Of a DNA stretch of 64,000 bases, positions 1,891 through 48,192 are shown piece by piece. The position numbers were made by a program, and so were the translations under genes. The notes beneath the pieces are model-generated. The model was not told the DNA's origin, searched no databases, and saw only the letters and a program-made list of their open reading frames with translations. Location of the stretch: assembly GCA_017459795.1 (NCBI GenBank), contig JAFUCG010000127.1, forward strand, positions 13,514 through 77,513. Reading direction: 5' to 3'. The first letter of the stretch is position 1. Every line of letters begins with the position of its first letter. The stretch comes from Erysipelotrichaceae bacterium. GTDB taxonomy: Bacteria > Bacillota_I > Bacilli_A > Erysipelotrichales > Erysipelotrichaceae.

Positions 1891-2901
1891 TTAGCCTAAT
1901 TCAGCGAAGTACTTAATTGTTCTTACCATCTGTGATGTGTAAGAATTTTCGTTGTCATACCAAGAAACAACCTGTACATGGTATGTGTCTTCATCAACCT
2001 TAGCTACCATTGTCTGTGTAGCATCGAAGATTGAACCAAATCTGCTACCGATGATATCGCTTGAAACGATTGGATCTGTGTTGTAGCCGAATGATTCAGT
2101 AGCCTGAGCCTTCATAGCAGCGTTAACAGCATCAACTGTTAAGTCATGAGCCTTAACTACAGCTACTAAGATTGTTGTTGAACCAGTGATTGTTGGAACT
2201 CTCTGAGCTGATCCGATTAACTTGCCGTTTAATTCTGGAATTACTAAACCGATAGCCTTTGCAGCACCTGTGCTGTTTGGAACGATGTTAGCAGCAGCAG
2301 CTCTAGCACGTCTCTTATCACCTTTTCTATGTGGTCCGTCTAATACCATCTGGTCACCTGTATAAGCATGAACAGTTGTCATGATACCTGACTGGATAGG
2401 GAATGCATCGTTTAATGCCTTAGCCATTGGAGCTAAGCAGTTTGTTGTACAAGAAGCTGCAGAAATGATTGTGTCTTCCTTAGTTAACTTTTCATGGTTA
2501 ACGTTGTAAACGATTGTTGGTAAATCGTTTCCAGCTGGAGCTGAAATAACAACCTTCTTAGCACCTGCATTGATATGAGCCTGTGCCTTTGCCTTGCTTG
2601 TATAGAAACCTGTACATTCTAAGACAACATCAACACCTAATTCACCCCATGGTAAATTGTTAGCGTCTGCTTCTTTGTAAATCTTAATTTCTTCACCATC
2701 AACTGTGATTGAATCTTCACCAGCTGTTACTGGATGATCATATCCGCCATGAGCTGTATCATACTTTAATAAGTAAGCTAACATATCAGGGCTTGTTAAA
2801 TCGTTGATAGCAACAACATCATAACCTTCAGCCTGCCACATCTGTCTGAAAGCTAAACGACCAATACGGCCAAAACCATTAATAGCGACTCTTACTGTCA
2901 T
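1891..2901 (-). CDS. gap: Glyceraldehyde-3-phosphate dehydrogenase
   Basis: 336 aa. N-terminal INGFGRIGR dinucleotide fold and the active-site motif SCTTNCLAP. Confidence 0.97.
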
Positions 2902-2992
2902 TGTAAAAATATCCTCCTGTGTTTTACGTTTAAATTATAAGAATTATAGGGTTAAAAGTCAATGAAATAGACACCCTTTAAAACCCTAAATT

Positions 2993-3025
2993 AAAGAGTA
3001 AAATCATTAATCTGACTTTACTCTT
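2993..3025 (-). terminator. Probable terminator after rubrerythrin
   Basis: 9-bp stem AAGAGTAAA/TTTACTCTT with a long loop. The trailing sequence is only moderately T-rich. Confidence 0.45.
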
Positions 3026-3038
3026 AATTAACCTGTTT

Positions 3039-3578
3039 TTAGTATTCTTCTACGCAGATTTCAAAATATGACTGTGGATGAGCACAGACTGGGCATGCCT
3101 TTGGAGCTGTCTTACCGAAATACAGATGTCCGCAGTTACGGCACTTCCAGCATGTTTCAGATACCTTTTCAAAGACTTCCTGCTTTTCGATTAATTCAGC
3201 TAATCTTAAGTATCTTTCTTCATGATGCTTTTCGATTGCGGCTACACCTTCCATCTGTCTGGCGATTGCTTCGAAGCCTTCTTCTCTGGCTGTCTTAGCC
3301 ATTTCAACATACATCTTTGTCCATTCTTCATTTTCGCCTGCAGCTGCTGCCTTCAGGTTTTCCAATGTTGTAGGAACCTTACCGCCATTGAGATGCTTGA
3401 ACCATAACTTAGCATGTTCCTTTTCATTTTCAGCTGTTTCCATGAAAATGGCTGCTACCTGTTCGTAACCGTCTTTCTTTGCCTGAGAGGCGAAATAAGT
3501 ATATTTATTTCTAGCCTGTGATTCACCGGCAAATGCGATTTCCAAATTCTTTTCTGTCTTAGATCCTTTTAATTCCAT
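3039..3578 (-). CDS. rbr: Rubrerythrin
   Basis: Ferritin-like ExxH diiron motifs plus a C-terminal rubredoxin-type CxxC...CxxC (CRNCGH...CPVCAH). The start is taken at MELKGSK, which follows a GGAAAGG RBS. The ORF track start at 3602 is also possible. Confidence 0.9.
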
Positions 3579-3637
3579 ATTGTCTTTACCTTTCCTTTTC
3601 ATTTATTCTAACACAGTAAACTGTGTTTTAGAATCCA

Positions 3638-4546
3638 TCAATATCTTTCGTTTATGTATAGCGGTTTATCACATAACCCAAAGCCTTCTCTGACCTTACG
3701 CACGTCACTTTCAAACAGTTTATTAAACAGTGGATAGTCATTTATTCTGGCCATCATTACCGTTCTTGAAGTTGACCTGATCTTTGGCATTGCCTTACTT
3801 AAGTCTTCATTTTCGCTGACTGTTACTTCAATGTTGTTCTTGAATTTCAAGGCGTAACAGATCAGTCTGATTAGTGCCGTGCCGTTCAGATATACAAGTT
3901 CGTCAACGTATATCTTCTGCTGGGTGATCTGATAGACCATGTAGCCTTCAACCTTACCCTCTTCATTACGGTAGCTGACAATGTTTCTTCTTAAGAACTG
4001 ATATTGTCTGAAGGCTTCGATCCAGTAGTTATTGTCTCTTTCATAATAACCGTTGAAGTGGGAAGCAAATTCTCTGAAGACCTTTACCAGTTCACTTATT
4101 TCAAATGGACCTCCTACCCCGTCAAATGATCTGTTCTTAAGATCACTGCGGCTGATGTTATAGGTCTTGCGCTTATATATGGCTTCAAAGCCATACTGTG
4201 TATAATCATTTGGCTTGTTAGTCAGTAACAGTGTTACCAGAGTCTTTCGGCTCACTTCATCAAGCACGTCATTCATCAGTTCTCTGAAGTATTCCTTATT
4301 CTGTTCCGTTGTTATCTGACCTAAGATGGTGCTTGCCCCAACTCTGATGTCATTTAATATCATGGTATGATAGTTGACCTGAAGTGAGGCAACGACATGA
4401 CTGTTATGATCGTTGACGATGACTTTGTCGGCATCAAAAAGACGCGCAAAATAGTATTCCATGTCATCATATCTGTCCACGGAAACATTTGAACTATGTA
4501 AGTCATAAATTGTCTTTCTGTCTGAATTCTTAGCCGACCTGATCAT
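3638..4546 (-). CDS. Eis-like GNAT-fold protein with SCP2-like C-terminal region (acetyl-CoA motif not obvious)
   Basis: 302 aa. Length and overall pattern resemble Eis-family acetyltransferases, but I could not find a clear R/QxxGxG/A motif. Confidence 0.4.
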   Translation of the reverse strand: MIRSAKNSDRKTIYDLHSSNVSVDRYDDMEYYFARLFDADKVIVNDHNSHVVASLQVNYHTMILNDIRVGASTILGQITTEQNKEYFRELMNDVLDEVSRKTLVTLLLTNKPNDYTQYGFEAIYKRKTYNISRSDLKNRSFDGVGGPFEISELVKVFREFASHFNGYYERDNNYWIEAFRQYQFLRRNIVSYRNEEGKVEGYMVYQITQQKIYVDELVYLNGTALIRLICYALKFKNNIEVTVSENEDLSKAMPKIRSTSRTVMMARINDYPLFNKLFESDVRKVREGFGLCDKPLYINERY

Positions 4547-22048: not shown

Positions 22049-22390
22049 TTAGTGCCATGGAACTACTGTTATTTCTATTTCCTTGATAATCTCTTTTTTA
22101 TCCATGCAATGGATTATGGTGCTTCCTTCCTTGATTCCTTTTATAGAAATTTTATTTTTCATTGTTTCAACAATATCAGGATCTTTGGAAACAATATTAA
22201 ATCTTAGAAAAGATGGATCAGGATAAATATAGTTTATTATCTGTTTTGTTTCACCAACATGTATTGTATAGCTATCCGAAAATGTATCAACAGTTTTAAC
22301 TGCAGGAAGTGTAAACCATTCCCACGCTATGAAGCCACAAACAAGACTAAATAAAACAAGTAAAACGATTCTTTTTTTGTTTAATTGCAT
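22049..22390 (-). CDS. Small membrane-anchored protein with a bacterial Ig-like (Big_2-type) domain
   Basis: N-terminal TM segment, then YTIHVGETKQI...SKDPDIVET...IKGIKEGSTII, a Big_2-like pattern. The start is uncertain (22390-22417). Confidence 0.5.
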   Translation of the reverse strand: MQLNKKRIVLLVLFSLVCGFIAWEWFTLPAVKTVDTFSDSYTIHVGETKQIINYIYPDPSFLRFNIVSKDPDIVETMKNKISIKGIKEGSTIIHCMDKKEIIKEIEITVVPWH

Positions 22391-22397
22391 TTGTCTA

Positions 22398-22736
22398 CTA
22401 CCCATTACCCTTTTCAATTACAGAAGAAGCAGCTGCCATTTCATTGTATATAATAATGCTCATTGCATTTGACATAAGTATTATAGTCAGCATTATAACA
22501 GTCCTCAGTCTGTCAACACCTATCACGCCTGTTTTGTAGCTCAGAAAAGTTGATAAGAATATTAGTGATGGGACAACAATAAAGCTTATAAAGCACTGTT
22601 TATTATAAAACACTTTTTTGTTACGGCATGCAATAAAAAGGAAGACCGTCATTATCACATTAATGACCGCACAAAGTTTCATGTTAAACAGACATAGCAC
22701 GATGTCACATACTGATATTAATATTACCTCTTTCAT
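22398..22736 (-). CDS. Small polytopic membrane protein, unknown function
   Basis: 112 aa with 3-4 hydrophobic segments, located in the operon with the ABC genes. Confidence 0.5.
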   Translation of the reverse strand: MKEVILISVCDIVLCLFNMKLCAVINVIMTVFLFIACRNKKVFYNKQCFISFIVVPSLIFLSTFLSYKTGVIGVDRLRTVIMLTIILMSNAMSIIIYNEMAAASSVIEKGNG

Positions 22737-22783
22737 ACATTATAAATCCTTATCCCAAAGATATAATAATTTTTATATTACTG

Positions 22784-23458
22784 TTATGCCCTGACTATCT
22801 TCTTGTTTTCCTGATCCAATGTGTAAATGACATCACACATCTCCGCAAGTCTTTCGTTGTGAGTTACCATGATTACACATTTATTTCTCTCCTTTGCCAG
22901 GCTTTTAAATATGCCCATGACTTCATCACTTGTATTACTGTCAAGATTACCGGTTGGTTCATCAGCTACTATGATATCAGAATCAGTTAGAATACTTCTG
23001 GCAATGGCTACTCTCTGCTGTTCTCCACCAGATAACGATGATGATTTTCTTCTGGTTTTCTCCTTACTGATCCCTAATTCCTCTAAAACACTGTAGATCT
23101 CATCGTCATTGATCTTTGTGACATTTTCACTAATATCCATCGCAATCTTGATGTTATCAACTGCGTTGTAATTATTTATCAAATTATAATTCTGATAGAT
23201 CATGCTTACTCCTGTACGGCGGTATTTATCAAGACCTATCTGTTTTATTTCCTGACCCTTGAACTGTACTTCTCCTTCATATCTTGAATCCTGGCCGGCT
23301 ATTACTGACAGGAAAGTGGTTTTTCCACTTCCGCTTTCACCAAGTATTGCATAAAACAATCCCTGCTCAAATGATGCCTCAGCTTTCTCAAAGATGATTC
23401 TTTTTCCCTCTCCGTCTTTATAGAAATAGTTAAGATTTCTTACTTCCAGTATTGCCAT
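22784..23458 (-). CDS. ABC transporter ATP-binding protein (MacB/FtsE-LolD type)
   Basis: Walker A GESGSGKTT, LSGGEQQR, Walker B IIVADEPTGNLD and H-loop MVTHN. Confidence 0.93.
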   Translation of the reverse strand: MAILEVRNLNYFYKDGEGKRIIFEKAEASFEQGLFYAILGESGSGKTTFLSVIAGQDSRYEGEVQFKGQEIKQIGLDKYRRTGVSMIYQNYNLINNYNAVDNIKIAMDISENVTKINDDEIYSVLEELGISKEKTRRKSSSLSGGEQQRVAIARSILTDSDIIVADEPTGNLDSNTSDEVMGIFKSLAKERNKCVIMVTHNERLAEMCDVIYTLDQENKKIVRA

Positions 23459-23463
23459 GTTAA

Positions 23464-24951
23464 CTATATACCTCCATTTATCTTATCTCTGAGACTACCG
23501 TGCAGTATACTTTTCATTGAACAACTTACCATAACAAATATGATAATAATCAAACAAATACAGGACATAAGTGCAGCTTTCACAATCTCTGAAAGCCTGA
23601 TACTGTCAAGCTGTATACTGGCGTTACTTATTGTTTCGTTACCATTGACAGACAGCTGCATCAGTTCATATTGAATGTCACCGCTGTTTTTGACTAATGT
23701 CATGAACAGTAATTGGGAAATGCTGTAAGCTATGATGAAACCTATAACTGCCGCAAATATGCCAATGAAACAATAATAACCGGCATACCTCAAAAGTATC
23801 CTTTCTTTACTCTGGCCAAGTGAATAATAAACATTCATTTCTCTTTTTTTACGATTAAGAACAAATAACATCATTGAACTCAGCATTGCTACGGAAGTAA
23901 CGGCACCTACCGCAAATACCACAAAGTAGAAGTTACTTGTTTTATCTACAGATCGCATTACAGTAGCATAATCATTCTGTTTTACTTTCAGCATGCTAGG
24001 ATTCTCTTCCGTTACTATAAATGCACTAGCATTATTACCTCCTCCAGTAATCGTGAATACCTCAGCAGATTTTGTTGAAATCATCTTATAGAAATCATAA
24101 TTACGGGCATAGTAATAATCGAAACTTTCAAGTTTGAACCATACATTATTGATGAACGCCATACTGTAATCGAATAGTTCGTTTTCTATGAAAGCTTCTT
24201 CCATTATACCTTCAGGGATGAGAATACAGTGATTGTTAACAAATGCATCCTGCTTACCATATGACGTATCAAACATTGTATGGTATTTATAAATACCTAT
24301 TACTTCAGCTTCAGTACTATAATACTTGTATACCGATAGTGTGTCACCAGAATAAATCGGGTACCCGGCTATACTTACAGTAAGTTTATCTCCAACTTTA
24401 ATCTTTTCACCGTTGAGATCAACACTCTCATCTACTATGATCTTTTTAGCGTTATTATTTATATCTTCATTTGTAAAGAATCTTCCATCTATAAGCTCAA
24501 TGCTTTCATAATTCTTATAATCAGCACTGGTTATGCCAAGCATTCGATAATAATTATAATCATACTGTTGTTGCTCTTCTTCATAACGCTCAACAATCGC
24601 CTGGTTTGTTCCTAAACTATAACCGTAATCTACAACTCCTTCTTCAAATTTAAATTCCTTAATATCATTATAAAATGTCCGGAAAGCTTCTATGCCTCTT
24701 TTGTCTGTTAATAGTTTTGTTCTGGCATATTCATCCCCATTATATACGCAGTCAAAAATACTGCCGCCTTCTAATTCCAGTCTTATGTCAATATTCTTCA
24801 TCAGACTTCTTTCAATCTGCTGAGAGTTCAACATGATACATGATAAGCCGATTGAAACTGATACTGTCAGCATTATTACCAATATCAGTAAGCTCTCTTT
24901 TTTGCTAGCCTTATATTCAGCTATAATCTTCTCAAAAAAACTCAACTTCAT
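23464..24951 (-). CDS. ABC transporter permease, FtsX/MacB family
   Basis: N-terminal TM, a large extracytoplasmic domain, then a C-terminal 3-TM FtsX-like bundle. The ATG at 24951 lies 1 nt after the upstream stop. Confidence 0.8.
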   Translation of the reverse strand: MKLSFFEKIIAEYKASKKESLLILVIMLTVSVSIGLSCIMLNSQQIERSLMKNIDIRLELEGGSIFDCVYNGDEYARTKLLTDKRGIEAFRTFYNDIKEFKFEEGVVDYGYSLGTNQAIVERYEEEQQQYDYNYYRMLGITSADYKNYESIELIDGRFFTNEDINNNAKKIIVDESVDLNGEKIKVGDKLTVSIAGYPIYSGDTLSVYKYYSTEAEVIGIYKYHTMFDTSYGKQDAFVNNHCILIPEGIMEEAFIENELFDYSMAFINNVWFKLESFDYYYARNYDFYKMISTKSAEVFTITGGGNNASAFIVTEENPSMLKVKQNDYATVMRSVDKTSNFYFVVFAVGAVTSVAMLSSMMLFVLNRKKREMNVYYSLGQSKERILLRYAGYYCFIGIFAAVIGFIIAYSISQLLFMTLVKNSGDIQYELMQLSVNGNETISNASIQLDSIRLSEIVKAALMSCICLIIIIFVMVSCSMKSILHGSLRDKINGGI

Positions 24952-24952
24952 A

Positions 24953-26401
24953 TTATTCACCTGACAGTAATTCCCTAGGAGAATACTTCTTGATTTGATT
25001 ATTAACAACAGTCATATTCACAATAACAAGCAGAACTATATATGCTATGTATACCAAATAATCAAATGGGGAGAAATGCAGACTGATGTTCATAGCAGCG
25101 GCTTTTGCATGATGACCTCCATAAACCAGAATGTCATGACTTGCATTGCTACTTAACAGATAATTTACAATGGTGCCGGAAATAAATTTGCTTAACATAA
25201 ACGCTAAACAACTTGCCACAACATATAGCAAGATTTCCTCTATTATTATCTGTTTTACTATTACTGTTCTTTTTTCGCCAAATGACATCAGCAATCCTAT
25301 TTCTTTTTTTCGATAGTACACGTCAAGTAATATAAGGCCAACACAAAATAGCAGGCACGTTATGTAACTTACCAAAGAAATGGACTTGATATTTTTTGAA
25401 ATGGCTATACAACTGCTTAATGCATCTGATATCTCATTAGTGTTAGTATAATATCCATAACCATGGTCATTTTCTTCTATTACTTTTATCAGTTCCTTAA
25501 GTTGCGCTAATCCTTTAACCTCGAAATAAGCTATTCCTGGAGTAGTATTAAGGTTTATACCCATATAATCATACTCTTCCATCTTATCCATTATCTTCCT
25601 GTAAAATCCTAAAGGATAATAACTGTTTCTATAATGGATAAAATCATTAACCGGTCTGTAAACTCCTACTACTGTTAACTCAAATGATTCCTTAACATAT
25701 CCTCCTTCAGAACTGCAGGATATGCTTACGCCTACTTTGTCACCCGGATGAAGAAAATGAGCTACTATTTCACCATTTTCTTCTCCAACATACAGTGTTC
25801 GACTATTTACAACACAAACATTGTCTCCATTAGCAATTTCCTCTTCAGTAAATGCTCTTCCCTCTATGATCTCTATATCACCATTCCTAATATCCGCAAA
25901 TACTGGGGCATCAACTATAACAGAAGTTATATTAGAGCCTAGAAATGACCACCTGGAAACTGTTCTCTGGTCTTCAATAAAATTACTGATTTCATTTTTA
26001 AAAGAACTATCTGCTTTATTGCGATTATCATATGTTAGTTCTGATACTAAAATTCCATTACTTAATTGCACATCCATAATAGCGTTAGATACAAATGTAC
26101 ATTCCTTATAACTATATAAAGTATCATCTATACTCTCGACATAATCAAAATACTCTCTGGCCTTTTTAAAGTTCTCACGCAAATCACATTCATTTCCAGT
26201 CCAGAATGAATCGTCATTAATTTCACTTGTAACAGAAGCATATAGATTAAGGTTATCGGTGATGTACTCACTGAATACATCACCGATATGATTAATAATT
26301 AATGAACACAAAATCACGAGAAAAAATGCTGATAATAATATAAGCTTTACTATAAACCTTATCTTGTTATTGATGAAATCCAATATTATTCTCTTTTTCA
26401 T
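24953..26401 (-). CDS. ABC transporter permease, FtsX/MacB family (second copy)
   Basis: Same architecture as 23464..24951. Confidence 0.8.
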   Translation of the reverse strand: MKKRIILDFINNKIRFIVKLILLSAFFLVILCSLIINHIGDVFSEYITDNLNLYASVTSEINDDSFWTGNECDLRENFKKAREYFDYVESIDDTLYSYKECTFVSNAIMDVQLSNGILVSELTYDNRNKADSSFKNEISNFIEDQRTVSRWSFLGSNITSVIVDAPVFADIRNGDIEIIEGRAFTEEEIANGDNVCVVNSRTLYVGEENGEIVAHFLHPGDKVGVSISCSSEGGYVKESFELTVVGVYRPVNDFIHYRNSYYPLGFYRKIMDKMEEYDYMGINLNTTPGIAYFEVKGLAQLKELIKVIEENDHGYGYYTNTNEISDALSSCIAISKNIKSISLVSYITCLLFCVGLILLDVYYRKKEIGLLMSFGEKRTVIVKQIIIEEILLYVVASCLAFMLSKFISGTIVNYLLSSNASHDILVYGGHHAKAAAMNISLHFSPFDYLVYIAYIVLLVIVNMTVVNNQIKKYSPRELLSGE

Positions 26402-26652
26402 AATTCGCTTTTTAGAATTATCCTCTATTCTCGTTTAATCAGACTACTATTTCTTTTAAATTAGTTTTTATGAAACCTATGAATGATAATAGTTCTGCAA
26501 GTTTATTATCATTCTGACTAATCCAACTAATACCAGATTGGATTAGTTTTTTATTTGTATGGCTCCATTCTTCACCTCTTGCTCTTCTTATCTCTACATT
26601 AATTGTAGTTAACCACTATTTTTTCTAACAGGACACAATGCGAGAATCTATA

Positions 26653-27528
26653 TTATTTAATCTCTAGTTTTGTGTCCCCTTTTTTCTCCTTTCTTTCTTT
26701 TGTTAAAACTAATGCACAATATAGAAACAGTGAAAAAATAACCACTATGTTCCACCATCTGATCCTGTTGTTTACAAGAGAATAATCAAAGTATAATAAT
26801 CTATTTCGATTCTGATATATTGACCTATACCAACCAATAGAACCACTTAATATCCTAGTTACATATATCAGAACCACTACACTAGGATTAATGTAATTAG
26901 CTTTTTTATAGTATATAATTATCGATACGGCACAAACCAGCGGTAATACTATCCACCTGAAGACTATGAATATTACATGTGTCAGTGATACAAGTTCTAT
27001 ATCATTTAAAAAGAGGAAACCTATTATAGAAAATGCTATTTCACACAAGAAAAATAGTAGTACAGTTAAACATGCGTTCCTCAAATCCTCTTGTTTTTTT
27101 ATTAGATTACGTAGCCATATTATAATTGCTGTCATCAAAACAACATCTTTCACTGTGTACATAATCGTAGATAAAGAAACTTTTACATAATTCCCTTTTG
27201 CGTTAAAAATATCTGATATGTCAAACAGTATACTTGCAAAAGTTAAGGCAAGCGATAGTCCCAATAACAGTATTTTTATGATACTGCTATTCTTCCATTT
27301 AGAAATGTCAGAAGTCTTTTCTAAGTTATCTGTTTGATCATTTAATAAATCATCAACTGATACATTGAATAGATTACTTATTTTCTTTAAATCACTTGCA
27401 GATGGTTCCGCAACTCCAGTTTCCCATTTAGACAAAGTTGGCCTGCTGATATTCAAAGCATCAGCCAAGTCATTTTGAGTATAGTCATTAGTTAATCTCA
27501 ATTCCTTAATCTTATCTTGTAATGTCAT
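26653..27528 (-). CDS. XRE-family HTH regulator fused to a polytopic membrane domain
   Basis: The N-terminal LRLTNDYTQNDLADALNISRPTLSKWETG is a Cro/C1 HTH. The rest carries about 6 predicted TM segments. Confidence 0.8.
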   Translation of the reverse strand: MTLQDKIKELRLTNDYTQNDLADALNISRPTLSKWETGVAEPSASDLKKISNLFNVSVDDLLNDQTDNLEKTSDISKWKNSSIIKILLLGLSLALTFASILFDISDIFNAKGNYVKVSLSTIMYTVKDVVLMTAIIIWLRNLIKKQEDLRNACLTVLLFFLCEIAFSIIGFLFLNDIELVSLTHVIFIVFRWIVLPLVCAVSIIIYYKKANYINPSVVVLIYVTRILSGSIGWYRSIYQNRNRLLYFDYSLVNNRIRWWNIVVIFSLFLYCALVLTKERKEKKGDTKLEIK

Positions 27529-28704: not shown

Positions 28705-28786
28705 TATATATACCTCTTTTCTACAATATAACCCCCTGGCAATGTAATTGCAATTATTTTAATCTGGGTTATAATCTTATTATTAG

Positions 28787-28884
28787 CAGAAAGTTTTATG
28801 GTGCGTTAAGTGCTGGTGATAAGGGAAGTTAATCACCGGACGAAAAGATTTTTCTTGCGGTACCATAGAGTGTCCCACTGTTAC
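28787..28884 (+). promoter_or_regulatory. THF (folT-motif) riboswitch
   Basis: AUGGU-GCGUUAAGUG-CUGGUGAU-AAGGGAAG-UUAAUCACCGG-ACGAA...GCGG-UACCAU...GUCCCAC. This matches the conserved GCGUUAAGUG / GGGA / ACGAA / GCGG blocks and helices of the THF riboswitch, and it lies directly upstream of a folT-type gene. Confidence 0.8.
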
Positions 28885-28935
28885 ATATTCCCTTATGTAG
28901 CACTGAAAAGAATGCTAACGAAAGGAAGAGAGAAT

Positions 28936-29460
28936 ATGTTTAAGCAATCATTAAATGAATTTTCCAAGACGAGGAACATCGTCATTATGGCAATGCTCTG
29001 TGCTGTTAACGTCGTTACCAGCTGGATCTCCATTCCATTGTCAGATACTCTGAAGATTACCTTCTCATTTCTGTCAATGTCATTGATCGGTCACCTGTTT
29101 GGACCAAGTTGTGGTGCAATATGTGGTCTGGCTCTTGATACCATCAAATTCATCATCAAGCCATCAGGACCATATAACCCTTTATGGGCCATTATAGAAA
29201 TGCTGGCAGGTATCATCTACGGTGTAATGCTCTATAAGAAAACAGCTACCATACAGCGTTGCTTCATCACAAAATTCATTGTCAGTCTGTTACTTAATGT
29301 TATTCTGACTCCACTGTTCCTGAGTTTCATGTATAGTAAGGGATTTATCTTCTATGCATCTTCAAGAGTTCTTAAGAACCTGATTCTCTGGCCAATAGAG
29401 TCGATGCTGATGTTTATCATCATGAACAGAATTGACGCCTACATGAAGACAAGATCATAG
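28936..29460 (+). CDS. folT: Folate-family ECF transporter S component
   Basis: 174 aa, about 5-6 TM segments, preceded by the THF riboswitch. The ATG at 28936 follows an AAAGGAAGAGAGA RBS. The ORF track start at 28810 would run through the riboswitch. Confidence 0.8.
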   Translation: MFKQSLNEFSKTRNIVIMAMLCAVNVVTSWISIPLSDTLKITFSFLSMSLIGHLFGPSCGAICGLALDTIKFIIKPSGPYNPLWAIIEMLAGIIYGVMLYKKTATIQRCFITKFIVSLLLNVILTPLFLSFMYSKGFIFYASSRVLKNLILWPIESMLMFIIMNRIDAYMKTRS

Positions 29461-41431: not shown

Positions 41432-42076
41432 CTACTCAGCTGCGAAATCATAAACACCGGTGATCTCAGCGTTATGTTCCGGATCTTCGTAGATGTCCAT
41501 GATGACATATCTGGCTTCTGTATCCTGGCCAACGTCCTTTGCCTGGCATAATACACAGTAATTAGCACCGGCAACGATTTGGTTTGCCAGATAAGCTATG
41601 GCTGTATATTCAACACCGGTAATGTTTTCAACTGCCTTGTCGAATACTTTCTGCAGTTCTTCTGTAATGGCCTTGTTCTCAGGCTTGCTCCAGCCGCCTA
41701 ATAAGCCGCTTTCAGCTGCCGTGGCATTGCTTGTTAACACCTGAGTCATTTCTACCTTACCCTCAGTGTCTTCATACAGATAAACTAACGCATATCTTGC
41801 TTCTGCATCCGTGCCAATGGTAGAAACCGTGCACAATAACAAGTGGTTTGTACCGCTGACTACCTGACTGGCAACATATGCCACAGGCTTGTAACTTGCC
41901 CCGGTAAGCTCTTCTGTTGCCTTATTCAGAAGTTCCTTCTCCTTATCTGTTATGTTCATGCTCTTTGGTACCTGCCAGCCACCATCCAGCTCTAACAGTC
42001 CCTCATTACTGTTATTACAGGCGATTAGTGAAATTACCATCAGACATGAAAGAATCATTAAAATTACTTTTTTCAT
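41432..42076 (-). CDS. Lipoprotein with two tandem cystatin/stefin-like domains
   Basis: Lipobox LIAC. Two ~90-aa repeats each carry a QxVxG loop (SQVVSGTNH, NQIVAGANY) after a helix, and each ends in an ARY(A/V)...YED strand. Confidence 0.65.
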   Translation of the reverse strand: MKKVILMILSCLMVISLIACNNSNEGLLELDGGWQVPKSMNITDKEKELLNKATEELTGASYKPVAYVASQVVSGTNHLLLCTVSTIGTDAEARYALVYLYEDTEGKVEMTQVLTSNATAAESGLLGGWSKPENKAITEELQKVFDKAVENITGVEYTAIAYLANQIVAGANYCVLCQAKDVGQDTEARYVIMDIYEDPEHNAEITGVYDFAAE

Positions 42077-42127: not shown

Positions 42128-44563
42128 TTAATTTAACTTAAAATTAATTTTACCTGCCAGATCATCATTCCAGTCAAACAGCTTAACATAGCCCTCAAGA
42201 CTCTTGGCTTTTGCCCTTAAGCCGGTGGAATGACGGGAAACATAAATGTCTGCCTTACCCTTGCCGTTCTTGGCTTCCTGAATCAGATTGGCGCCAGCCG
42301 AGTTACCGTCAAGAGCGATGACGGTTGATTCTCTTCTTTCAAAGATCTCATAATTGAATGACTTATATAATCCCATTGTGCTTGTTTCCGTCGAAACAAT
42401 TATCTTTACATTGTTCTTAAGATACTTTTCCTTTTCAGCTTCAGTTATCATTGCCGGTACAATGGCATAGATGTCAAACCCTCTGTTATTTGTCAGTAAA
42501 TACCTTTCATAACCGGTTAGCTTATTGCCTATGACAAAGAATACCTTATCCTTGTCCAGAGAATTAAGCAGTCCATCGATCAGCTTTCGGCCCTTTTCAG
42601 TCAGCCTGGTATGATGACGACTGTTATTAAAACTATCGGCAACCAATACAATTGGATGCTTATCCCACGGTAATTCACCAAGCTTATTCTTCAAGACTTC
42701 CCTGGAATCATATTTAACAACGTTGAACCTGCCCAGTTCAGCATCATCATTCACAGTTTCTCTTTCATATATTTCATCAATGCTCATTTCCTCAAGCAGT
42801 TTATTGAAATCATTCTTCTTTCTTTCAAATACCTTAAGGCTGTGCTTAATGATCTCACTTTCGGTTTCCTTCATCTTTAACAGTTCATCATGGCTTAAGT
42901 TCAGAAGCTTTTCCAAAGACAGCTGTTCATCTATGCAATTGGTGCCATAGATGGCAGCGCCGTCAGTACCCTGAACGCACCTGATGCCGGCTTTCAAATA
43001 CTTTCTTAAAGGATGCTCTTGAATACTGTTGAGGTTATTGAGTCTTACATTGGAAGTGATCTGGAATTCCAGAACGACCTTATTATCACGAATGTACTTC
43101 ATTAACTTACGGCCTTTGGCGCTGTTCAGATTAGCAGTATATAAGCCGTGTCCTATTCTTATCTGTGGCATTTTATGGCCCTTTACAAGGGCTTTTTCTA
43201 CACAGCGAATACTGTTTTCCACGTTGTCGGTAAGCCCGTCATTTTCCCCTGCATGAATTCTGATGACGAAACCGTCATTATCATCAGCTATCTTAACAAG
43301 TTCACTTATTAACGGCTGTAATTCATTGATGTCATTTATTTCTTCTCCGACAATGTCACTGCCGGCCACATATGGATCTTTGGCAATCGGCCTTAATACC
43401 CTTAAGTTATTCTGCAGATAGTTGACAGAAGTAACCTGATCTCTTACTAAGGTTAACGGTATTCTTCTGAAGGAAGCCAAGAACCTGATGATGACACCGG
43501 TTTCTGAAGTGATCTGATCCATCACTTCATGAACTTCCTTAAGCATTCTTACGGCTTCCTTTTCCTTTACCAAAGTTGTATCGGATATTTCCACATAGTT
43601 AACGCCCTGATTCTGATAGCTTCTGGCGATCCATAAAAGTTTGTCCTTAAACAGGTCATTATTCTTATATTCTCCCTTTTCATCAGCACTCATCTGATCA
43701 AGATATCTGACAATATCCTCATCTGAAAGCTTATGGTAGTCATTTACCTTAACCTTTCTTTCTGAGACTATTCCCTTAGTAAACACATAGCGATACAGAT
43801 ATACTTTTTCCAGATTGGTAAATACTGCCTGCCCGTCTTTCAAAATAGTCAGGGAAGCTCTGACCTTATTGATGTTGGCAGCTGAATTACTCAGATTATT
43901 CAGAATGAGATCAGCAAAGTTAATGAAGGTATTATCATCTATTTTTCTGGTAAGATACTTGCCGGTCAGTTCAGAATCACAGTATCTTTCAGCTACCTTT
44001 TCCCGCTGTCTTAAGATCCTTTCTTCCTGCTTCTTACTTAAGGTAAGATTCAGTTTCTTAACATAATATAGTGGGTACCTTAGCTGATGCTTTATGGCTA
44101 AGGCTATTAATATGTCACCTGAAAGATTGGCATTCATGTGCGTATGCAGATCGCTTCTGAACTTTACATCATTAAGAATGTAGGTCTTGATTATCGTTCG
44201 GGCAATGTCCAGTTTATAATCTTTTGTCTGGCTCATTAAGGTCTTGGAAATGGCCGGTATAGATGCTTTCATCTCTATCCTGCCACTAGGAAAGATATTG
44301 GCAACCTTGGTATTGCCTAATCTGAAGATGTATATCTTTATGTTTTCAGCGTCGATGTAACAAGGAACCTTACCCTCTATTATCTTTAAGCCGTTATTAT
44401 CAAAGCTAAGATCAAGATCACAAAGCCTGGCTAGGTTAGTAATAAGATTGCCGGTCTTATGGTTAGGCGTTCTTAAAACGTAGAACATCTCATCATTTCT
44501 CAGATAAAGCTCTACAATCATGTCTTTTTCATTATCCAGAAAGAATCTGCCAAAGTATTTCAT
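42128..44563 (-). CDS. 811-aa multidomain protein: unknown N-domain, adenosine/AMP-deaminase-fold domain, C-terminal SLOG-like Rossmann domain
   Basis: The ATG at 44563 follows an AAGGAG RBS. Motifs: DLHTH (aa 138-142), GSDIVGEE (401-408), IHAGE (436-440), GHG (471-473), GTDG (532-535). C-terminal VFFVIGNKLTGYERYLL and VIALDGNSAGANLIQEA. Confidence 0.7.
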   Translation of the reverse strand: MKYFGRFFLDNEKDMIVELYLRNDEMFYVLRTPNHKTGNLITNLARLCDLDLSFDNNGLKIIEGKVPCYIDAENIKIYIFRLGNTKVANIFPSGRIEMKASIPAISKTLMSQTKDYKLDIARTIIKTYILNDVKFRSDLHTHMNANLSGDILIALAIKHQLRYPLYYVKKLNLTLSKKQEERILRQREKVAERYCDSELTGKYLTRKIDDNTFINFADLILNNLSNSAANINKVRASLTILKDGQAVFTNLEKVYLYRYVFTKGIVSERKVKVNDYHKLSDEDIVRYLDQMSADEKGEYKNNDLFKDKLLWIARSYQNQGVNYVEISDTTLVKEKEAVRMLKEVHEVMDQITSETGVIIRFLASFRRIPLTLVRDQVTSVNYLQNNLRVLRPIAKDPYVAGSDIVGEEINDINELQPLISELVKIADDNDGFVIRIHAGENDGLTDNVENSIRCVEKALVKGHKMPQIRIGHGLYTANLNSAKGRKLMKYIRDNKVVLEFQITSNVRLNNLNSIQEHPLRKYLKAGIRCVQGTDGAAIYGTNCIDEQLSLEKLLNLSHDELLKMKETESEIIKHSLKVFERKKNDFNKLLEEMSIDEIYERETVNDDAELGRFNVVKYDSREVLKNKLGELPWDKHPIVLVADSFNNSRHHTRLTEKGRKLIDGLLNSLDKDKVFFVIGNKLTGYERYLLTNNRGFDIYAIVPAMITEAEKEKYLKNNVKIIVSTETSTMGLYKSFNYEIFERRESTVIALDGNSAGANLIQEAKNGKGKADIYVSRHSTGLRAKAKSLEGYVKLFDWNDDLAGKINFKLN

Positions 44564-44611
44564 TATTAACTCCTTTGTGAAATGATACAACAACTTCTCT
44601 TTCTTAACAAG

Positions 44612-44640
44612 CAAAAGAAAATGCCTCGCTAAAGGCATTA
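44612..44640 (-). terminator. Rho-independent terminator after nucleoside hydrolase 2
   Basis: The minus strand reads AATGCCT-ttagcg-AGGCATT followed by TTCTTTT. It overlaps the stop codon. Confidence 0.7.
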
Positions 44641-45579
44641 ACTTATCACTTTTAATACTGTCTCTTCAAAATCCTTAACAAAGCGCTCACCATCGACCTT
44701 TAAGCCATAGTGAATCCTCTTTACCGGATCATTTAACAATTCCTTGTCACCAATCATTCTTCCCCTGGTGATTCCATCCTGTTCAATCATCAGATTAACA
44801 GGGAACCACTCAGTTATGATTTCAGGATCCAAGGCAGCCTCAACTGCCAGTGGGTCATGCATCGCTCCACCGACAACTTCAAATTCATTTGAATAGTAGT
44901 ATGAAGCAGCTTCATATAACTTATCAGCCTTTTCATTATCAAGCTGTTTCCAGCGCATGATGTCATTACCGGTAATGATCGTCTGTAAGGTAACATCCAG
45001 TCCAACAAAGTACAGATCAAGACCGCTGTCAATGACCTTCTGAGCAGCCTCAACATCGTTATAGATGTTTGCTTCGGCATATGGCGTTACATTGCCTTTT
45101 ACCGTCAAAGCACCACCCATGATGACGATTCTCTTACATAAGCCTATCGCTTCCCTGTCAAGTTCAATTGCCTTGGCCAAGTTTGTTAACGGGCCAACAC
45201 ATATCAGTATCAGTTCATCCCTATACTCGCGGCATGCCTCAACCATGAATTGCCAGGCTTTCTTTTCTTCAACATTACGCTTTGAAACAGGTAATTCTAC
45301 ATTACCAATGCCATTATTGCCATGGATCCTGTATAAGTGTTCACGTACCTGCCATTCACTTTTATCACCAGGTCCTTTTGCCCCAGCATATACAGGTACA
45401 TCACTTCTGCCTAAAAGATCCAGTAGATTCAGGCTGTTTCTACTTGCGGTTTCAAGAGTGACATTACCAAAACAGGTCGTTACCCCAATAAGCTCAGCGT
45501 CTTTTCTGCCCAGGGCAAAGGTAATGGCCAAGGCATCATCTATTCCCGTATCTACATCAAGTATGATTTTTGTCTTCAT
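44638..45579 (-). CDS. Inosine/uridine-preferring nucleoside hydrolase family protein
   Basis: N-terminal DVDTGIDDALA (DxDxxxDD) fingerprint. 313 aa. Confidence 0.9.
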   Translation of the reverse strand: MKTKIILDVDTGIDDALAITFALGRKDAELIGVTTCFGNVTLETASRNSLNLLDLLGRSDVPVYAGAKGPGDKSEWQVREHLYRIHGNNGIGNVELPVSKRNVEEKKAWQFMVEACREYRDELILICVGPLTNLAKAIELDREAIGLCKRIVIMGGALTVKGNVTPYAEANIYNDVEAAQKVIDSGLDLYFVGLDVTLQTIITGNDIMRWKQLDNEKADKLYEAASYYYSNEFEVVGGAMHDPLAVEAALDPEIITEWFPVNLMIEQDGITRGRMIGDKELLNDPVKRIHYGLKVDGERFVKDFEETVLKVIS

Positions 45580-45580
45580 G

Positions 45581-46063
45581 CTAGTCTTCCTTTAAATGTA
45601 TCTTCGTGCTTATTAATAAACCTATTACCATTGGAATGGCATCGGCTATGAAGGCTATTACGCTTCTGATGATCTTCGCTTCCAAAGGCAGGTTAAAGAA
45701 TATGACTTCAACCATTGTCTTTATTACCGCAATGCCAATGAATACGGAAATTATCGTAACGATTATCTTTAACCACATCTTATCAGTATTCTTGTAGTAA
45801 TACCCGCAGGCAATGCCGATGAAGATCTGACCGATTATCCAGCCGATTGGAAATGAGCCTCCGGAAAGCACATTGCTTAAAACACAGCCTATTACCCCAA
45901 CGATCGTAGCACTCATGCCAAACAGATTAAGAAACGCACCAAAAGCCACATAGCCAAAGTCGGTCTTTATGTGGTTAATGAGCGGGATTTTAATTGTCAT
46001 CGACAGAACTACATACAGGGCAATGCCCATGGCGTAGTAGGCTATCAGCTTATTACGTTTCAC
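45581..46063 (-). CDS. ECF-transporter S-component-like membrane protein (substrate unknown)
   Basis: About 160 aa with 5-6 TM segments. The GTG at 46063 lies 5 nt after GGAG, and the upstream stop TAA sits inside that RBS. Confidence 0.6.
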   Translation of the reverse strand: MKRNKLIAYYAMGIALYVVLSMTIKIPLINHIKTDFGYVAFGAFLNLFGMSATIVGVIGCVLSNVLSGGSFPIGWIIGQIFIGIACGYYYKNTDKMWLKIIVTIISVFIGIAVIKTMVEVIFFNLPLEAKIIRSVIAFIADAIPMVIGLLISTKIHLKED

Positions 46064-46065
46064 GC

Positions 46066-46437
46066 TTACTCCGGTTTGATCGTTGAACACAACATGTTGA
46101 TCTCGAAAATGTTCATGTTGCTGAAGCCAACAACGTAACCCTGATCATTCTTCTGATCAATGTAGAAGTAAATGTAAGTCGTCTCATCTTTCTGTACCAT
46201 TTTACCAGGCAGATTTGAATTCATGGCCTGATAGTGTTCACTTTCTGCCAGTACTTCTTCGGGAGTCTTATGCAGAATGACAAAAGCCTTGTCAGATCTT
46301 GAACTTCTGAACATTCCCTCATCAACTTCTACCCAATTAGTTGGAACAAGAACAGAAAGAGTAAAAGCTTTCTTCTTAATGTTTTTATAAAGTTGTGATC
46401 CGGCATATGCCAGAATACCTAAACTAAGTAAATTCAT
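46066..46437 (-). CDS. Small N-terminally anchored protein, unknown function
   Basis: The ATG at 46437 follows a GAGG RBS. One TM segment, then a ~100-aa soluble domain. Confidence 0.5.
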   Translation of the reverse strand: MNLLSLGILAYAGSQLYKNIKKKAFTLSVLVPTNWVEVDEGMFRSSRSDKAFVILHKTPEEVLAESEHYQAMNSNLPGKMVQKDETTYIYFYIDQKNDQGYVVGFSNMNIFEINMLCSTIKPE

Positions 46438-46480
46438 TATATACACCTCGCATTAATTATCTCTATTTTACAATTAATGT

Positions 46481-46512
46481 AAAAAAAATAACAGTTGTTT
46501 AAACTGTTATTC
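46481..46512 (-). terminator. Rho-independent terminator after nucleoside hydrolase 1
   Basis: The minus strand reads AATAACAGTT-taaac-AACTGTTATT followed by TTTTTTT. Confidence 0.85.
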
Positions 46513-47436
46513 ATGTCTTCTTAAGGTTTCCTCAACAATGTCCCAGAACTTGCCTAAGTCCAGACTTAAGCCGACTCTGACATTTGGTTCCTTATGGTAA
46601 CGGTTGTTCATGTCAAATATTGTACGGCCATAACTGTTGCCCTTAGACAGATCTATTTCAGCATAGACGTCCTTGTAATTATAAATATCAGAAGCGAACA
46701 GATATGTTACGGCAGTTACATCGTGAACCGGACCGGCTGACAGGCCATTTAAGGCCTGGCTCTTTAAGGTAAAGCGCATGATGTCGCCAAACAGTTTGCC
46801 GGCCTTATTGCCAATGGCTTCCATTCTTTCAATTATTGTCATGTCTGCCAAGGCAGTATTGGTCAGATCCAGAGGCATCATGACAATGGGTACTCCTGAT
46901 GTTAAAACAACATGGGCAGCTTCCGGGTCAGCCAGAATGTTGAACTCAGCTGCAGGTGTAGCGTTTCCTAAACCAATTGCCCCACCCATTAAGACGATCT
47001 GCTTGATTTTAGAGGCAATACGCGGTTCAAAACGCAAAGCCATGGCAATGTTGGTAAGCGGGCCAACCGGTACTAATGAAATGTCACCTTCAGAATTCAT
47101 CAGTGTATCGATGATGAAATTAACAGCGTGCTTTTCTTCAGGCTTTCTTACTAACGGTTCAAATACAGGACCGTCTAAGCCGCTTTTACCGTGAATGTCA
47201 CCGGCTACGATCTGATCTCTGACCATTGGCTTACTCATGCCACCATAAACAGGTACATTAATGTTCAGATGCTGACAAACACTTAAGGTATTAGGTAAGG
47301 TCTTTTCCAATACCTGATTACCGGCTACTACGGTTACACCTAATAAGTCAATCTGCGGATGCTTTGAAGCGACCATTAAGGCTATGGCATCATCATGTCC
47401 AGTATCACAATCGAGAATCATCTTAATCTTTTCCAT
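46507..47436 (-). CDS. Nucleoside hydrolase (IUNH/Rih family)
   Basis: [11 protein letters not shown] fingerprint. 309 aa. Confidence 0.9.
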
Positions 47437-47511: not shown

Positions 47512-48192
47512 ATGAAAATAATTGATAATCCCAGACTTTTAGCTCAGATAAGACAAAACACGGAATACAAGCGCTTCTTCTCGAATGAAGCCGACAGGTA
47601 CGCTTTCGTTGGTGAGATCAAACAGGGTGAAACATTCATCTACCAACAGGAACCTTCTCAATACCTTTACTTTCTTTATAAGGGAAAGTGTCAGGTAACA
47701 GCCTACATGGAAAACGGCAAGGCAGTAATCATTAATACACTTCATGCACCTTGCCTGATAGGCGAAATAGAACTGATAAAGAACGACTATCCTTTCTCAG
47801 TTGATGCCTTAAAGAACTGTACTGCGGCTGTCTTTCCAATCGATCCATGCCGTAGCATTCTCTTGCATGATACAGAATTTCTCTATCAGCTTTGTTCGGC
47901 CTTAGTTGATAAGGAAAGAAAGAATGCCTTAAGCCTGGCCCATCACATTTCCTTCCCGTTTGAATACCGCCTGGCCAAGTTTATCTTAGACAATAGTGAT
48001 GGCAAGATCTTCAAGGTCAAGAAAACAGTCATCGCTGAAAGCCTGGGCATTTCCTACCGTCATCTGGAAAAGGTAATGAAGAACTTCGTTGATCAGGGCT
48101 TCTTGCGAAAAGAAAAGCTTACCTACTACATTACTGACGTAAATGCCTTAGATAAGCTTTCAAAATCATTAAATGTCTTTTATAAATCGTAA
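47512..48192 (+). CDS. Crp/Fnr family transcriptional regulator
   Basis: N-terminal cNMP-binding-like beta-barrel and a C-terminal HTH (TVIAESLGISYRHLEKVMKNF). Confidence 0.8.
   Translation: MKIIDNPRLLAQIRQNTEYKRFFSNEADRYAFVGEIKQGETFIYQQEPSQYLYFLYKGKCQVTAYMENGKAVIINTLHAPCLIGEIELIKNDYPFSVDALKNCTAAVFPIDPCRSILLHDTEFLYQLCSALVDKERKNALSLAHHISFPFEYRLAKFILDNSDGKIFKVKKTVIAESLGISYRHLEKVMKNFVDQGFLRKEKLTYYITDVNALDKLSKSLNVFYKS

Follow-up and report, generated by a model that had tools for sequence, protein, structure and literature searches.

Does a gene that joins a deaminase fold to a putative nucleotide sensor serve the metabolism of its own cell, or does it belong to antiphage immunity? This question is raised by the gene on the minus strand at 42128-44563 of a 64,000-nucleotide stretch of an Erysipelotrichaceae bacterium (assembly GCA_017459795.1, contig JAFUCG010000127.1, positions 13,514 to 77,513 of the forward strand), which is called the window here. 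The gene encodes a protein of 811 amino acids (aa), composed of an N-terminal alpha/beta domain, a barrel of the adenosine deaminase (ADA) superfamily and a C-terminal Rossmannoid domain of the SLOG fold. An earlier reading made from the letters of the window (the sequence-only reading) had suggested a ligand-gated nucleotide deaminase and framed it as a possible antiphage effector. We propose instead a stand-alone three-domain adenine-nucleotide deaminase, which would be gated through its SLOG domain by an endogenous metabolite or alarmone and would tune the cell's own purine-nucleotide pools; considering sequence, structure models and analogy together, we give this a rough probability of 0.45. 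The family may be described as predicted sensor-coupled deaminases of the ADA fold with two undescribed domain families, belonging to the ADA superfamily, and to SLOG by fold only.

The deaminase barrel

The gene and the elements of its barrel are located in the window as follows.

42128-44563, minus strand: complete deaminase-SLOG gene, 811 codons, stop codon at 42128-42130 (open reading frame list and translation)
42779-44167, minus strand: (beta/alpha)8 barrel of the adenosine/AMP-deaminase superfamily, aa 133-595 (PF00962; best sequence matches in PDB to ADA structures)
44138-44152, minus strand: DLHTH, aa 138-142, with metal ligands H140 and H142 (sequence and homologue alignment)
43664-44131, minus strand: family-specific insertion after barrel strand 1, aa ~145-300, with the near-invariant LKDGQAVFTNLEKVYLYRYVF inside (homologue alignment; ~100 aa longer than Add)
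43340-43363, minus strand: GSDIVGEE, aa 401-408, counterpart of the ADA 'DLAGDE' purine-N3 contact loop (sequence and homologue alignment)
43244-43258, minus strand: IHAGE, aa 436-440, with metal ligand H437 and proton shuttle E440 (sequence and alignment)
43145-43153, minus strand: GHG, aa 471-473, with catalytic His472 (sequence and alignment)
42959-42970, minus strand: GTDG, aa 532-535, with metal ligand D534 and Gly535 in place of the second Asp of the classical TDD (sequence and alignment)

The identity of the window protein is 96% with protein P0001 and 52-69% with hundreds of full-length homologues. PF00962 was its sole Pfam match (aa 281-565; 68.4 bits, E = 7.5e-19, over the gathering threshold of 27 bits). 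The five motifs DLHTH, GSDIVGEE, IHAGE, GHG and GTDG, which the sequence-only reading had listed as deaminase signatures, were all located at the residues it named. H140, H142, H437, E440, H472 and D534 are invariant among 25 aligned homologues; HxH, HAGE, GHG and GTDG occur together in 117 of the 119 close full-length homologues, and G406 of the purine-N3 loop is also conserved. The residues of the DLHTH region presumably correspond to H15, H17 and D19 of mouse ADA, and N144 of the window protein sits where ADA has Asp19. The second Asp of TDD is not universal, since the canonical Add of the same window has TDN rather than the textbook TDD. Judged by its residues, the zinc and hydrolytic machinery of the ADA fold is intact in the window protein.

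The canonical Add is encoded at 786-1802 on the plus strand. It has the same fold and catalytic residues (27% identity over 134 aa), but it is only 338 aa long and reaches 256.7 bits on TIGR01430, over the cut-off of 216.55, whereas the window protein carries three extra conserved modules and scores at best 57 bits on the NCBIfam Add equivalogs TIGR01430 and PRK09358, whose cut-offs are 216-549. With this bona fide Add present, the genome has in the 811-aa protein a further ADA-fold enzyme, not orthologous to the first. From HxH to GxDxxGxE there are about 260 aa, compared with about 160 aa in Add, in agreement with the longer spacing noticed earlier. The insertion core (aa 200-265) is the most conserved region of the protein: among the close homologues (the main clade) the mean pairwise identity was 80% in this core, 67% in the barrel, 66% in the N-terminal domain, 56% in the SLOG domain and 27% in the linker. 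The claim that the segment after HxH follows an AMP-deaminase pattern was not borne out, as all nine NCBIfam matches (E <= 1) are adenosine-deaminase models, from a library not confirmed to hold an AMP-deaminase model.

Several homologues carry the NCBI label 'adenosine deaminase' (public records otherwise give 'hypothetical protein'), and in three related genomes the gene adjoins two IU_nuc_hydro genes and the gene of an ECF S-component. These observations would fit an ordinary adenosine deaminase paralogue, in which the extra domains are structural and inosine goes to the adjacent hydrolases; a role in feeding these hydrolases, taken as inosine-preferring, had also been the mundane alternative of the sequence-only reading. 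We regard it as very improbable. The protein falls far under every Add equivalog cut-off in a genome that already has a true Add, and about 470 extra residues kept at 56-80% identity argue for a function. The adjacency is confined to one lineage, is broken by a terminator and is interrupted by a GNAT gene in one genome; the two hydrolases score best against the pyrimidine-type models RihB, RihA and RihC, which leaves the feeding role weak and the inosine preference unsupported.

The substrate is probably not plain adenosine, because the genome has Add and the extra elements are as conserved as the active site. The barrel would take the 6-amino group off a larger adenine compound, most probably a phosphorylated nucleotide, and the conserved extra elements would enlarge or cap the active-site pocket.

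The SLOG-like and N-terminal domains

The remaining parts of the protein are encoded as follows.

44168-44563, minus strand: N-terminal alpha/beta domain, aa 1-132, about 10 strands and 2-3 helices (AlphaFold2 model, predicted local distance difference test score, pLDDT, 91.7)
42674-42778, minus strand: variable linker, aa 596-630, with no invariant column at its 27% mean pairwise identity (alignment)
42164-42673, minus strand: C-terminal SLOG-like Rossmannoid, aa 631-800 (AlphaFold2 and Foldseek)
42635-42640, minus strand: codons 642-643, GCC GAT for Ala-Asp in place of the family's Gly-Gly at the first SLOG glycine loop, GGSFN (homologue alignment)
42506-42514, minus strand: GYE, aa 684-686, the GxE motif, with E686 invariant across both clades (alignment)
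42302-42310, minus strand: DGN, aa 752-754, opening the second glycine-rich loop DGNSAGxNxxQEA (alignment)

For aa 610-811, AlphaFold2 fed with an alignment of 26 homologues gave a seven-strand alpha/beta Rossmannoid (pLDDT 92.7, pTM 0.90). The high-probability matches (~1.0) of this model in a Foldseek search against PDB were SLOG-superfamily members, with a best E of 7e-4 and TMq of 0.50-0.59. They included the N-terminal domains of TRPM4, TRPM8, TRPM2 and TRPM3 (TMq 0.53-0.59, with the best E), LOG proteins 1ydh and 5zbk (TMq 0.50-0.54), DprA 5mll and 4ljk, the Moco carrier protein 2iz7 and ShosA 8zva. No SLOG Pfam family was matched by 15 diverse members, even at E <= 10, and the profile of the same members matched no SLOG chain in PDB. 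The SLOG/LOG/DprA-like module of the sequence-only reading is therefore upheld at the level of the modelled fold, while its sequence matches no Pfam or PDB family. A sequence-level placement in LOG, DprA, LSDAT or YpsA was rejected for the same lack of a match. The C-terminal domain is thus, as modelled, a member of the SLOG superfamily by fold with moderate similarity, and a new sequence family.

The family comprises a second, divergent clade, and the SLOG domains of the two clades are 23-28% identical. Conserved in both are GGS(F/Y) after strand 1, VIG, GxE, YK, (D/E)G and N759. For SLOG proteins of the YpsA clade, GxD/E has been predicted to mark substrate binding (PMC6459960). In alignment and model, the conserved glycine-rich and GxE loops on a domain tethered by a linker of about 55 aa would be the expected layout of a nucleotide-binding regulatory module.

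Searched with unfiltered phmmer against 1.84 billion representative proteins, the SLOG domain gave 136 matches, mostly short proteins, which were solely fragments of the deaminase-SLOG family or fused to a deaminase domain. The ADA domain was present in seven of the ten matches scanned with Pfam, four long divergent proteins among these. Stand-alone SLOG proteins of about 255-265 aa were considered and dismissed, since all eight inspected begin at internal positions (internal Met M465, M564) and are read as truncated gene calls. As far as these searches reach, the ADA-SLOG pairing is obligate and exclusive for this SLOG subtype. The divergent P0202 aligns with aa 102-775 of the window protein at 28% identity, and the insertion after HxH, GTDG and the SLOG loops are common to both; because the two proteins share all this along the alignment, the architecture of N-terminal domain, inserted barrel and SLOG domain appears old, with the domains kept together.

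The first SLOG glycine loop reads GG in 116 of 118 close full-length homologues. P0001 has GGC GGC at these codons, P0002 has Ala-Gly, and the window copy Ala-Asp. With an Asp in its phosphate-binding loop, the window copy would be expected to bind a ligand less tightly. The ratio of non-synonymous to synonymous substitution rates (dN/dS) of the window gene against that of P0001 was 0.056 overall, with 0.042 in the N-terminal domain, 0.035 in the barrel and 0.130 in the SLOG domain. Taken together, the AD loop and the higher SLOG ratio suggest an altered or relaxed sensing in this strain, with barrel and N-terminal domain still tightly constrained. At the level of the whole gene, as read from these substitution rates, purifying selection is strong.

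We propose that the SLOG domain would bind a nucleotide-derived ligand and act as an allosteric switch of catalysis, in the manner of CARF in Cad1 and SLOG in ThsA. Two other uses of the domain have to be weighed. The presence of LOG structures among the fold matches, together with the nucleoside-catabolic neighbourhood in this lineage, could point to a bifunctional catabolic enzyme, in which SLOG acts in series as a nucleotide N-glycosidase of the LOG/PpnN type (e.g. AMP to IMP, then to hypoxanthine and ribose-5-P). The PGGxGTxxE motif of LOG is not present, its place being taken by DGNSAGxNxxQEA; the Lysine_decarbox Pfam family is not matched at E <= 10 by the 15 diverse members; and the window copy has lost the GG loop while the gene stays under strong purifying selection. 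A catabolic role in series is hence extremely improbable.

The second concerns signal molecules. The best structural matches are TRPM N-terminal domains, which bind ADP-ribose in TRPM2 and ATP in TRPM4. SLOG could then be a substrate-recognition rather than an allosteric module, recognising jointly with the barrel an ADP-ribose/NAD derivative, c-di-AMP, Ap4A or (p)ppApp, which deamination would inactivate or convert. The obligate, exclusive pairing would agree with it, and the large conserved insertion and the N-terminal domain could make an extended binding surface; anecdotally, cdaA is 2.5 kb away from one homologue, and a RelA_SpoT gene adjoins another. We hold this quite improbable, because the variable linker points to a loosely tethered module and not to a composite active site, and second-messenger genes are not recurrently linked among the 78 loci surveyed below. 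We also know of no ADA-fold enzyme acting on dinucleotide or second-messenger substrates.

The N-terminal domain was modelled with confidence, and the earlier description of an unrecognised beta-rich domain agrees with its lack of a Pfam relative or a Foldseek relative in PDB or BFVD (best E = 0.15-0.26; template modelling score, TM, <= 0.34). No CARF-like fold was matched either. The kinase N-lobe and the type III secretion system chaperone were set aside, as look-alikes with TM <= 0.34 only.

Genomic context, known systems and proposed function

The family is abundant in rumen and gut Firmicutes. The protein search gave 5,615 clusters at E <= 0.001, thousands of which are attributed to the family. 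Nearly all of the 120 matches listed were full-length (~810-845 aa) and 58-69% identical, under the names Erysipelotrichaceae, Solobacterium, Bilifractor, Eubacterium and Lachnospiraceae. With one genome scanned per species, at least 545 species carry a relative, Lachnospiraceae and Erysipelotrichaceae foremost, and 38 further main-clade loci were obtained from metagenomes.

For the neighbourhood survey, open reading frames were called in 78 loci and all genes within +/-6 genes of the target were clustered. No conserved partner gene was revealed in them; the commonest neighbour was a generic ABC exporter (12 of 78 loci). Pfam found 166 families in 134 flanking genes, none of them in more than four proteins, and PADLOC found in the same 134 genes (34 loci) only generic helix-turn-helix (HTH), ATPase and UvrD matches and isolated singletons. 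The sequence-only reading had asked whether a TIR, cyclase or other signal synthase is ever adjacent to homologues, or the gene found in defence islands; no TIR, cyclase (CD-NTase), CRISPR (Cas10), RdrA, HAM1 or SIR2 partner recurred in the 78 + 3 loci, and no cas, HAM1, SIR2, RdrA ATPase or ThsB/TIR gene was found near the window gene. The annotated contexts of homologues are housekeeping ones: peptide deformylase and nitroreductase; RelA_SpoT, NAD synthase and LytR; iPGM; also glutathione (GSH) peroxidase, dUTPase and the CdaA-YbbR-GlmM genes. Because these contexts are housekeeping and without a recurrent neighbour, the nucleoside-hydrolase adjacency of the window is lineage-specific synteny. 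A consistent setting in purine salvage operons, which would have spoken for plain salvage, was likewise not seen. Across the surveyed loci no defence island was found around the family genes, and no purine operon outside the Erysipelotrichaceae lineage. In tblastn searches of 50,697 phage and 72,556 plasmid records only generic Add matches were obtained, at 20-33% query coverage, and the family was matched neither in IMG/VR by pattern scans nor in PHROGs.

The target gene also behaves as a resident of its chromosome region. The order Crp, hydrolase, 126-aa protein, ECF S-component, hydrolase, target, then HlyIII, DUF1836 and on to SecA is common to two relatives with target proteins 68-69% identical. 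As this value falls within the 55-92% of the flanking orthologues, the target diverges like an average resident gene. Its guanine-cytosine (GC) content is 0.390, compared with 0.408 +/- 0.030 for 43 window genes (z = -0.59), and its GC at third codon positions (GC3) is 0.435 (z = +0.31 in the same set); the GC deficit sits at codon position 2, since the protein is rich in Lys, Asn and Ile. The atypical composition and separate acquisition claimed earlier do not agree with these values nor with the conserved synteny. Low GC was accordingly discarded as a sign of foreign origin, the real low-GC island of the window lying at 22-27.5 kb.

Against this background the immune reading may be weighed. 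It holds that the protein is a self-contained, SLOG-gated ATP/dATP or dAMP deaminase, which a nucleotide from an unlinked synthase or from a phage would activate, leading to growth arrest as with Cad1 and RdrB, or to an inosine-nucleotide signal as with KomA. The layout of a sensor plus an ADA barrel parallels Cad1 (PMC11645235), and CARF_ADA was the only PADLOC match of the window protein (1.5e-10), though with 38.6 bits over the barrel only, below the ordinary ADA models (57-68 bits). ShosA is also among the matches of the SLOG fold, SLOG is the sensor of ThsA (PMC12948488), SLOG domains are biased to conflict systems, and the distribution of the family is patchy and looks horizontally spread. 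On the other side stand the missing recurrent partner or defence island, the lack of an RdrB match, a synteny stable over about 30% protein divergence with a dN/dS of 0.056, a main clade unusually homogeneous for a defence gene, and the absence from phage, plasmid and IMG/VR records. We therefore judge an immune effector or signal generator rather unlikely. Of the ligand-gated nucleotide deaminase of the sequence-only reading, the intact barrel and the SLOG-type module with conserved loops remain, while its antiphage framing is disfavoured by the lack of a partner and of phage, plasmid or IMG/VR carriage, and by the stable synteny.

The strongest hint of a conflict-related branch in the wider family comes from the divergent sister clade. 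Its proteins have the same architecture of N-terminal domain, ADA barrel and SLOG domain and are about 25-32% identical to the window protein; P0202, P0245, P0253 and P0228 are 862-1012 aa long, and about ten metagenomic loci were also found. These genes stand in a conserved cassette, at the following loci.

L087, 1-4063
L088, 1-8603
L089, 3-4019
L090, 226-4453
L137, 7419-15559
also L119, L124, L126 and L133

Upstream of the sister-clade gene is a protein of about 300-336 aa with an HLLTDYLFYNR motif and a faint match to Zn_dep_PLPC (Zn-dependent phospholipase C, E = 0.033), and downstream a Lys/Glu-rich protein of about 155 aa. The cassettes of L088 and L137 add a SecA/DEAD-like protein of about 890-907 aa (weak DEAD match), a second paralogue of about 155 aa and a protein of about 135 aa. 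With these, the cassette has up to six genes, namely phospholipase-C-like, ADA-SLOG, two ~155-aa paralogues, SecA-like ATPase and ~135-aa protein. A Mob_Pre relaxase and TnpV are found on the L087 contig, and on another contig the cassette lies between an MltG-like gene and lysS. The accessory proteins had no match in PADLOC, PHROGs or PDB profile searches, and no homologues of their genes were found near main-clade genes or in the window. The cassette, once beside Mob_Pre and TnpV, also counts in favour of the immune reading. It leads further to the idea of a single-gene module of nucleotide immunity or stress, which would answer a diffusible nucleotide signal produced by an invader or from another locus of the genome, with the sister cassette as its multi-component ancestor or variant; we consider this unlikely.

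Two side observations belong to the cassettes. In L090 the sister-clade protein appears as two overlapping open reading frames, 1246-2148 (300 aa, N-terminal domain and HxH) and 2132-4453 (773 aa, the rest), which reflects a frameshift, an assembly error or a truly split gene. In the Lachnospiraceae-type locus L143 (5410-6333, 11957-12997) a main-clade gene lies two genes from a PF00882 Zn-dependent phospholipase C and 2.5 kb from the cdaA-ybbR-glmM genes; the phospholipase echoes the sister-clade partner, yet there is no sequence similarity between them, and the arrangement was met once.

Among known systems, Cad1/CAAD resembles the window protein in joining an ADA barrel via a linker of about 50 aa to a Rossmann-like nucleotide sensor, the domains being only predicted in our case. 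In Cad1 of type III CRISPR, ligand binding to CARF turns on the conversion of ATP to ITP (PMC11645235). The sensor is an N-terminal CARF in Cad1, whereas it is C-terminal and SLOG-like in the window protein, which has no CRISPR context and adds the N-terminal domain and a 100-aa barrel insertion; the CARF_ADA match covers profile positions 333-571 (the deaminase part) only, and PDB 9c67 gave E = 0.089. RdrB of RADAR is likewise a large ADA-family protein (~800 aa) with insertions. To our knowledge it has no SLOG domain, and no RdrA AAA+ ATPase adjoins the window gene or recurs at homologue loci. The RdrB model was not matched, as PADLOC (E <= 1) gave CARF_ADA only and the PDB profile search (E <= 10) ADA-type chains only. 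RdrB deaminates ATP and dATP (PMC9994260). KomA of Kongming, another ADA-family (PF00962) enzyme acting on a nucleotide, uses dAMP to make an immune signal and is encoded in an operon with the HAM1-like KomB and the SIR2-like KomC (bioRxiv 10.1101/2024.12.20.629578); HAM1 and SIR2 partners are not among the recurrent neighbours here nor near the window gene.

The SLOG domain is the sensor of Thoeris ThsA (PMC12948488). With ThsA, the TRPM2 N-terminal domain, YpsA, LOG, DprA and ShosA, the window protein shares the Rossmannoid fold with glycine-rich and GxE loops at the expected positions, but here the domain is fused to a deaminase and not to a SIR2, channel or transmembrane domain, and there is no ThsB/TIR nearby. 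The eukaryotic AMP deaminase (AMPD) is the functional analogy that we favour, as it is a large, multi-domain, allosterically regulated enzyme of the same superfamily acting on a nucleotide; its regulatory domains are unrelated, and TDG replaces TDD in the window protein. No description of an ADA-SLOG fusion was found in a full-text literature search, which did not reach Burroughs et al. 2015 on SLOG.

We thus return to the nucleotide deaminase tuning the cell's own pools. Its ligand is more likely an endogenous metabolite or alarmone than an immune signal, because the gene stands singly, in conserved synteny and under strong constraint, among housekeeping genes, and the enzyme would then be a bacterial counterpart of the regulated eukaryotic AMP deaminase. 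Several points weigh against this proposal. The specificity for a nucleotide over a nucleoside is argued solely from the redundancy with Add and the extra conserved elements, and the coupling of the domains is predicted from N-terminal and SLOG domains modelled separately. A conserved link to purine genes is absent outside one lineage, and Rfam found no riboswitch or leader, including any purine-related riboswitch or regulon signal, upstream of the gene in the window and at 19 homologue loci. The identity between Erysipelotrichaceae and Lachnospiraceae proteins forms a plateau at about 58-60%, while a sister genus is only 68% identical; this suggests horizontal spread, as would also be expected of accessory or conflict genes. 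Conflict systems often contain SLOG domains (PMC6459960), and the sister clade stands in a multi-gene cassette, once adjoining a Mob_Pre relaxase.

Cad1, RdrB and KomA have recently shown adenine-nucleotide deamination as a regulated cellular switch. To these the deaminase-SLOG family would bring a third type of sensor on the ADA fold, together with a domain whose modelled fold matches no known one. Should the protein control the purine-nucleotide pools of its cell, bacteria, which are generally believed to have no regulated AMP deaminase, would possess an analogue of that enzyme; should it instead be an immune module, guilt-by-association searches would be blind to this defence gene. In either case the natural pair of GG and AD loops at 96% identity offers a ready control for the sensor loop.

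Local organization of the window

Upstream of the gene the following signals were located.

44570-44575, minus strand: Shine-Dalgarno sequence AAGGAG, 6 nt before ATG 44563 (read from the sequence)
44582-44610, minus strand: candidate sigma-70-like promoter, TTGTTA-17-TATCAT (consensus scan; weak, matches not enriched over shuffled sequence)
44620-44639, minus strand: terminator-like hairpin with an 8-bp stem followed by the T-run TTCTTTTGCT, ending the upstream nucleoside-hydrolase gene (sequence scan)

The ribosome-binding site and the upstream terminator, both pointed out by the sequence-only reading, were thereby recovered, the hairpin with its T-run at 44639-44620 following directly after the hydrolase gene. 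ATG 44563 is the sensible start, since a longer reading from ATG 44638 would cross this hairpin.

Downstream of the deaminase gene, after 51 nt, lies a 214-aa open reading frame (41432-42076, minus strand) encoding a lipoprotein with a signal peptide and a LIAC lipobox. The lipoprotein contains two internal repeats and faintly matches an aspartic-proteinase inhibitor (SQAPI, cystatin-like), and its gene is kept in two of three close relatives. Because no terminator was detected between them, the lipoprotein and deaminase genes may be co-transcribed.

On the other side, a Crp-family regulator (47512-48192, plus strand) is divergent from the cluster at 44638-47436 (minus strand), which comprises a RihB-like hydrolase, a 126-aa protein, an ECF S-component and a RihA/C-like hydrolase. 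This cluster, syntenic in three Erysipelotrichaceae genomes, is likely a unit of nucleoside uptake and hydrolysis.

Elsewhere in the window, the low-GC island at 22049-27528 (GC 0.30-0.34) contains an ABC ATPase, two large FtsX/MacB-like permeases, small membrane proteins and an XRE-HTH membrane protein, and by eye it resembles an antimicrobial-peptide export or immunity cluster. A tetrahydrofolate (THF) riboswitch (RF01831, 67.1 bits) was found at 28785-28882 on the plus strand, upstream of the plus-strand open reading frame 28810-29460.

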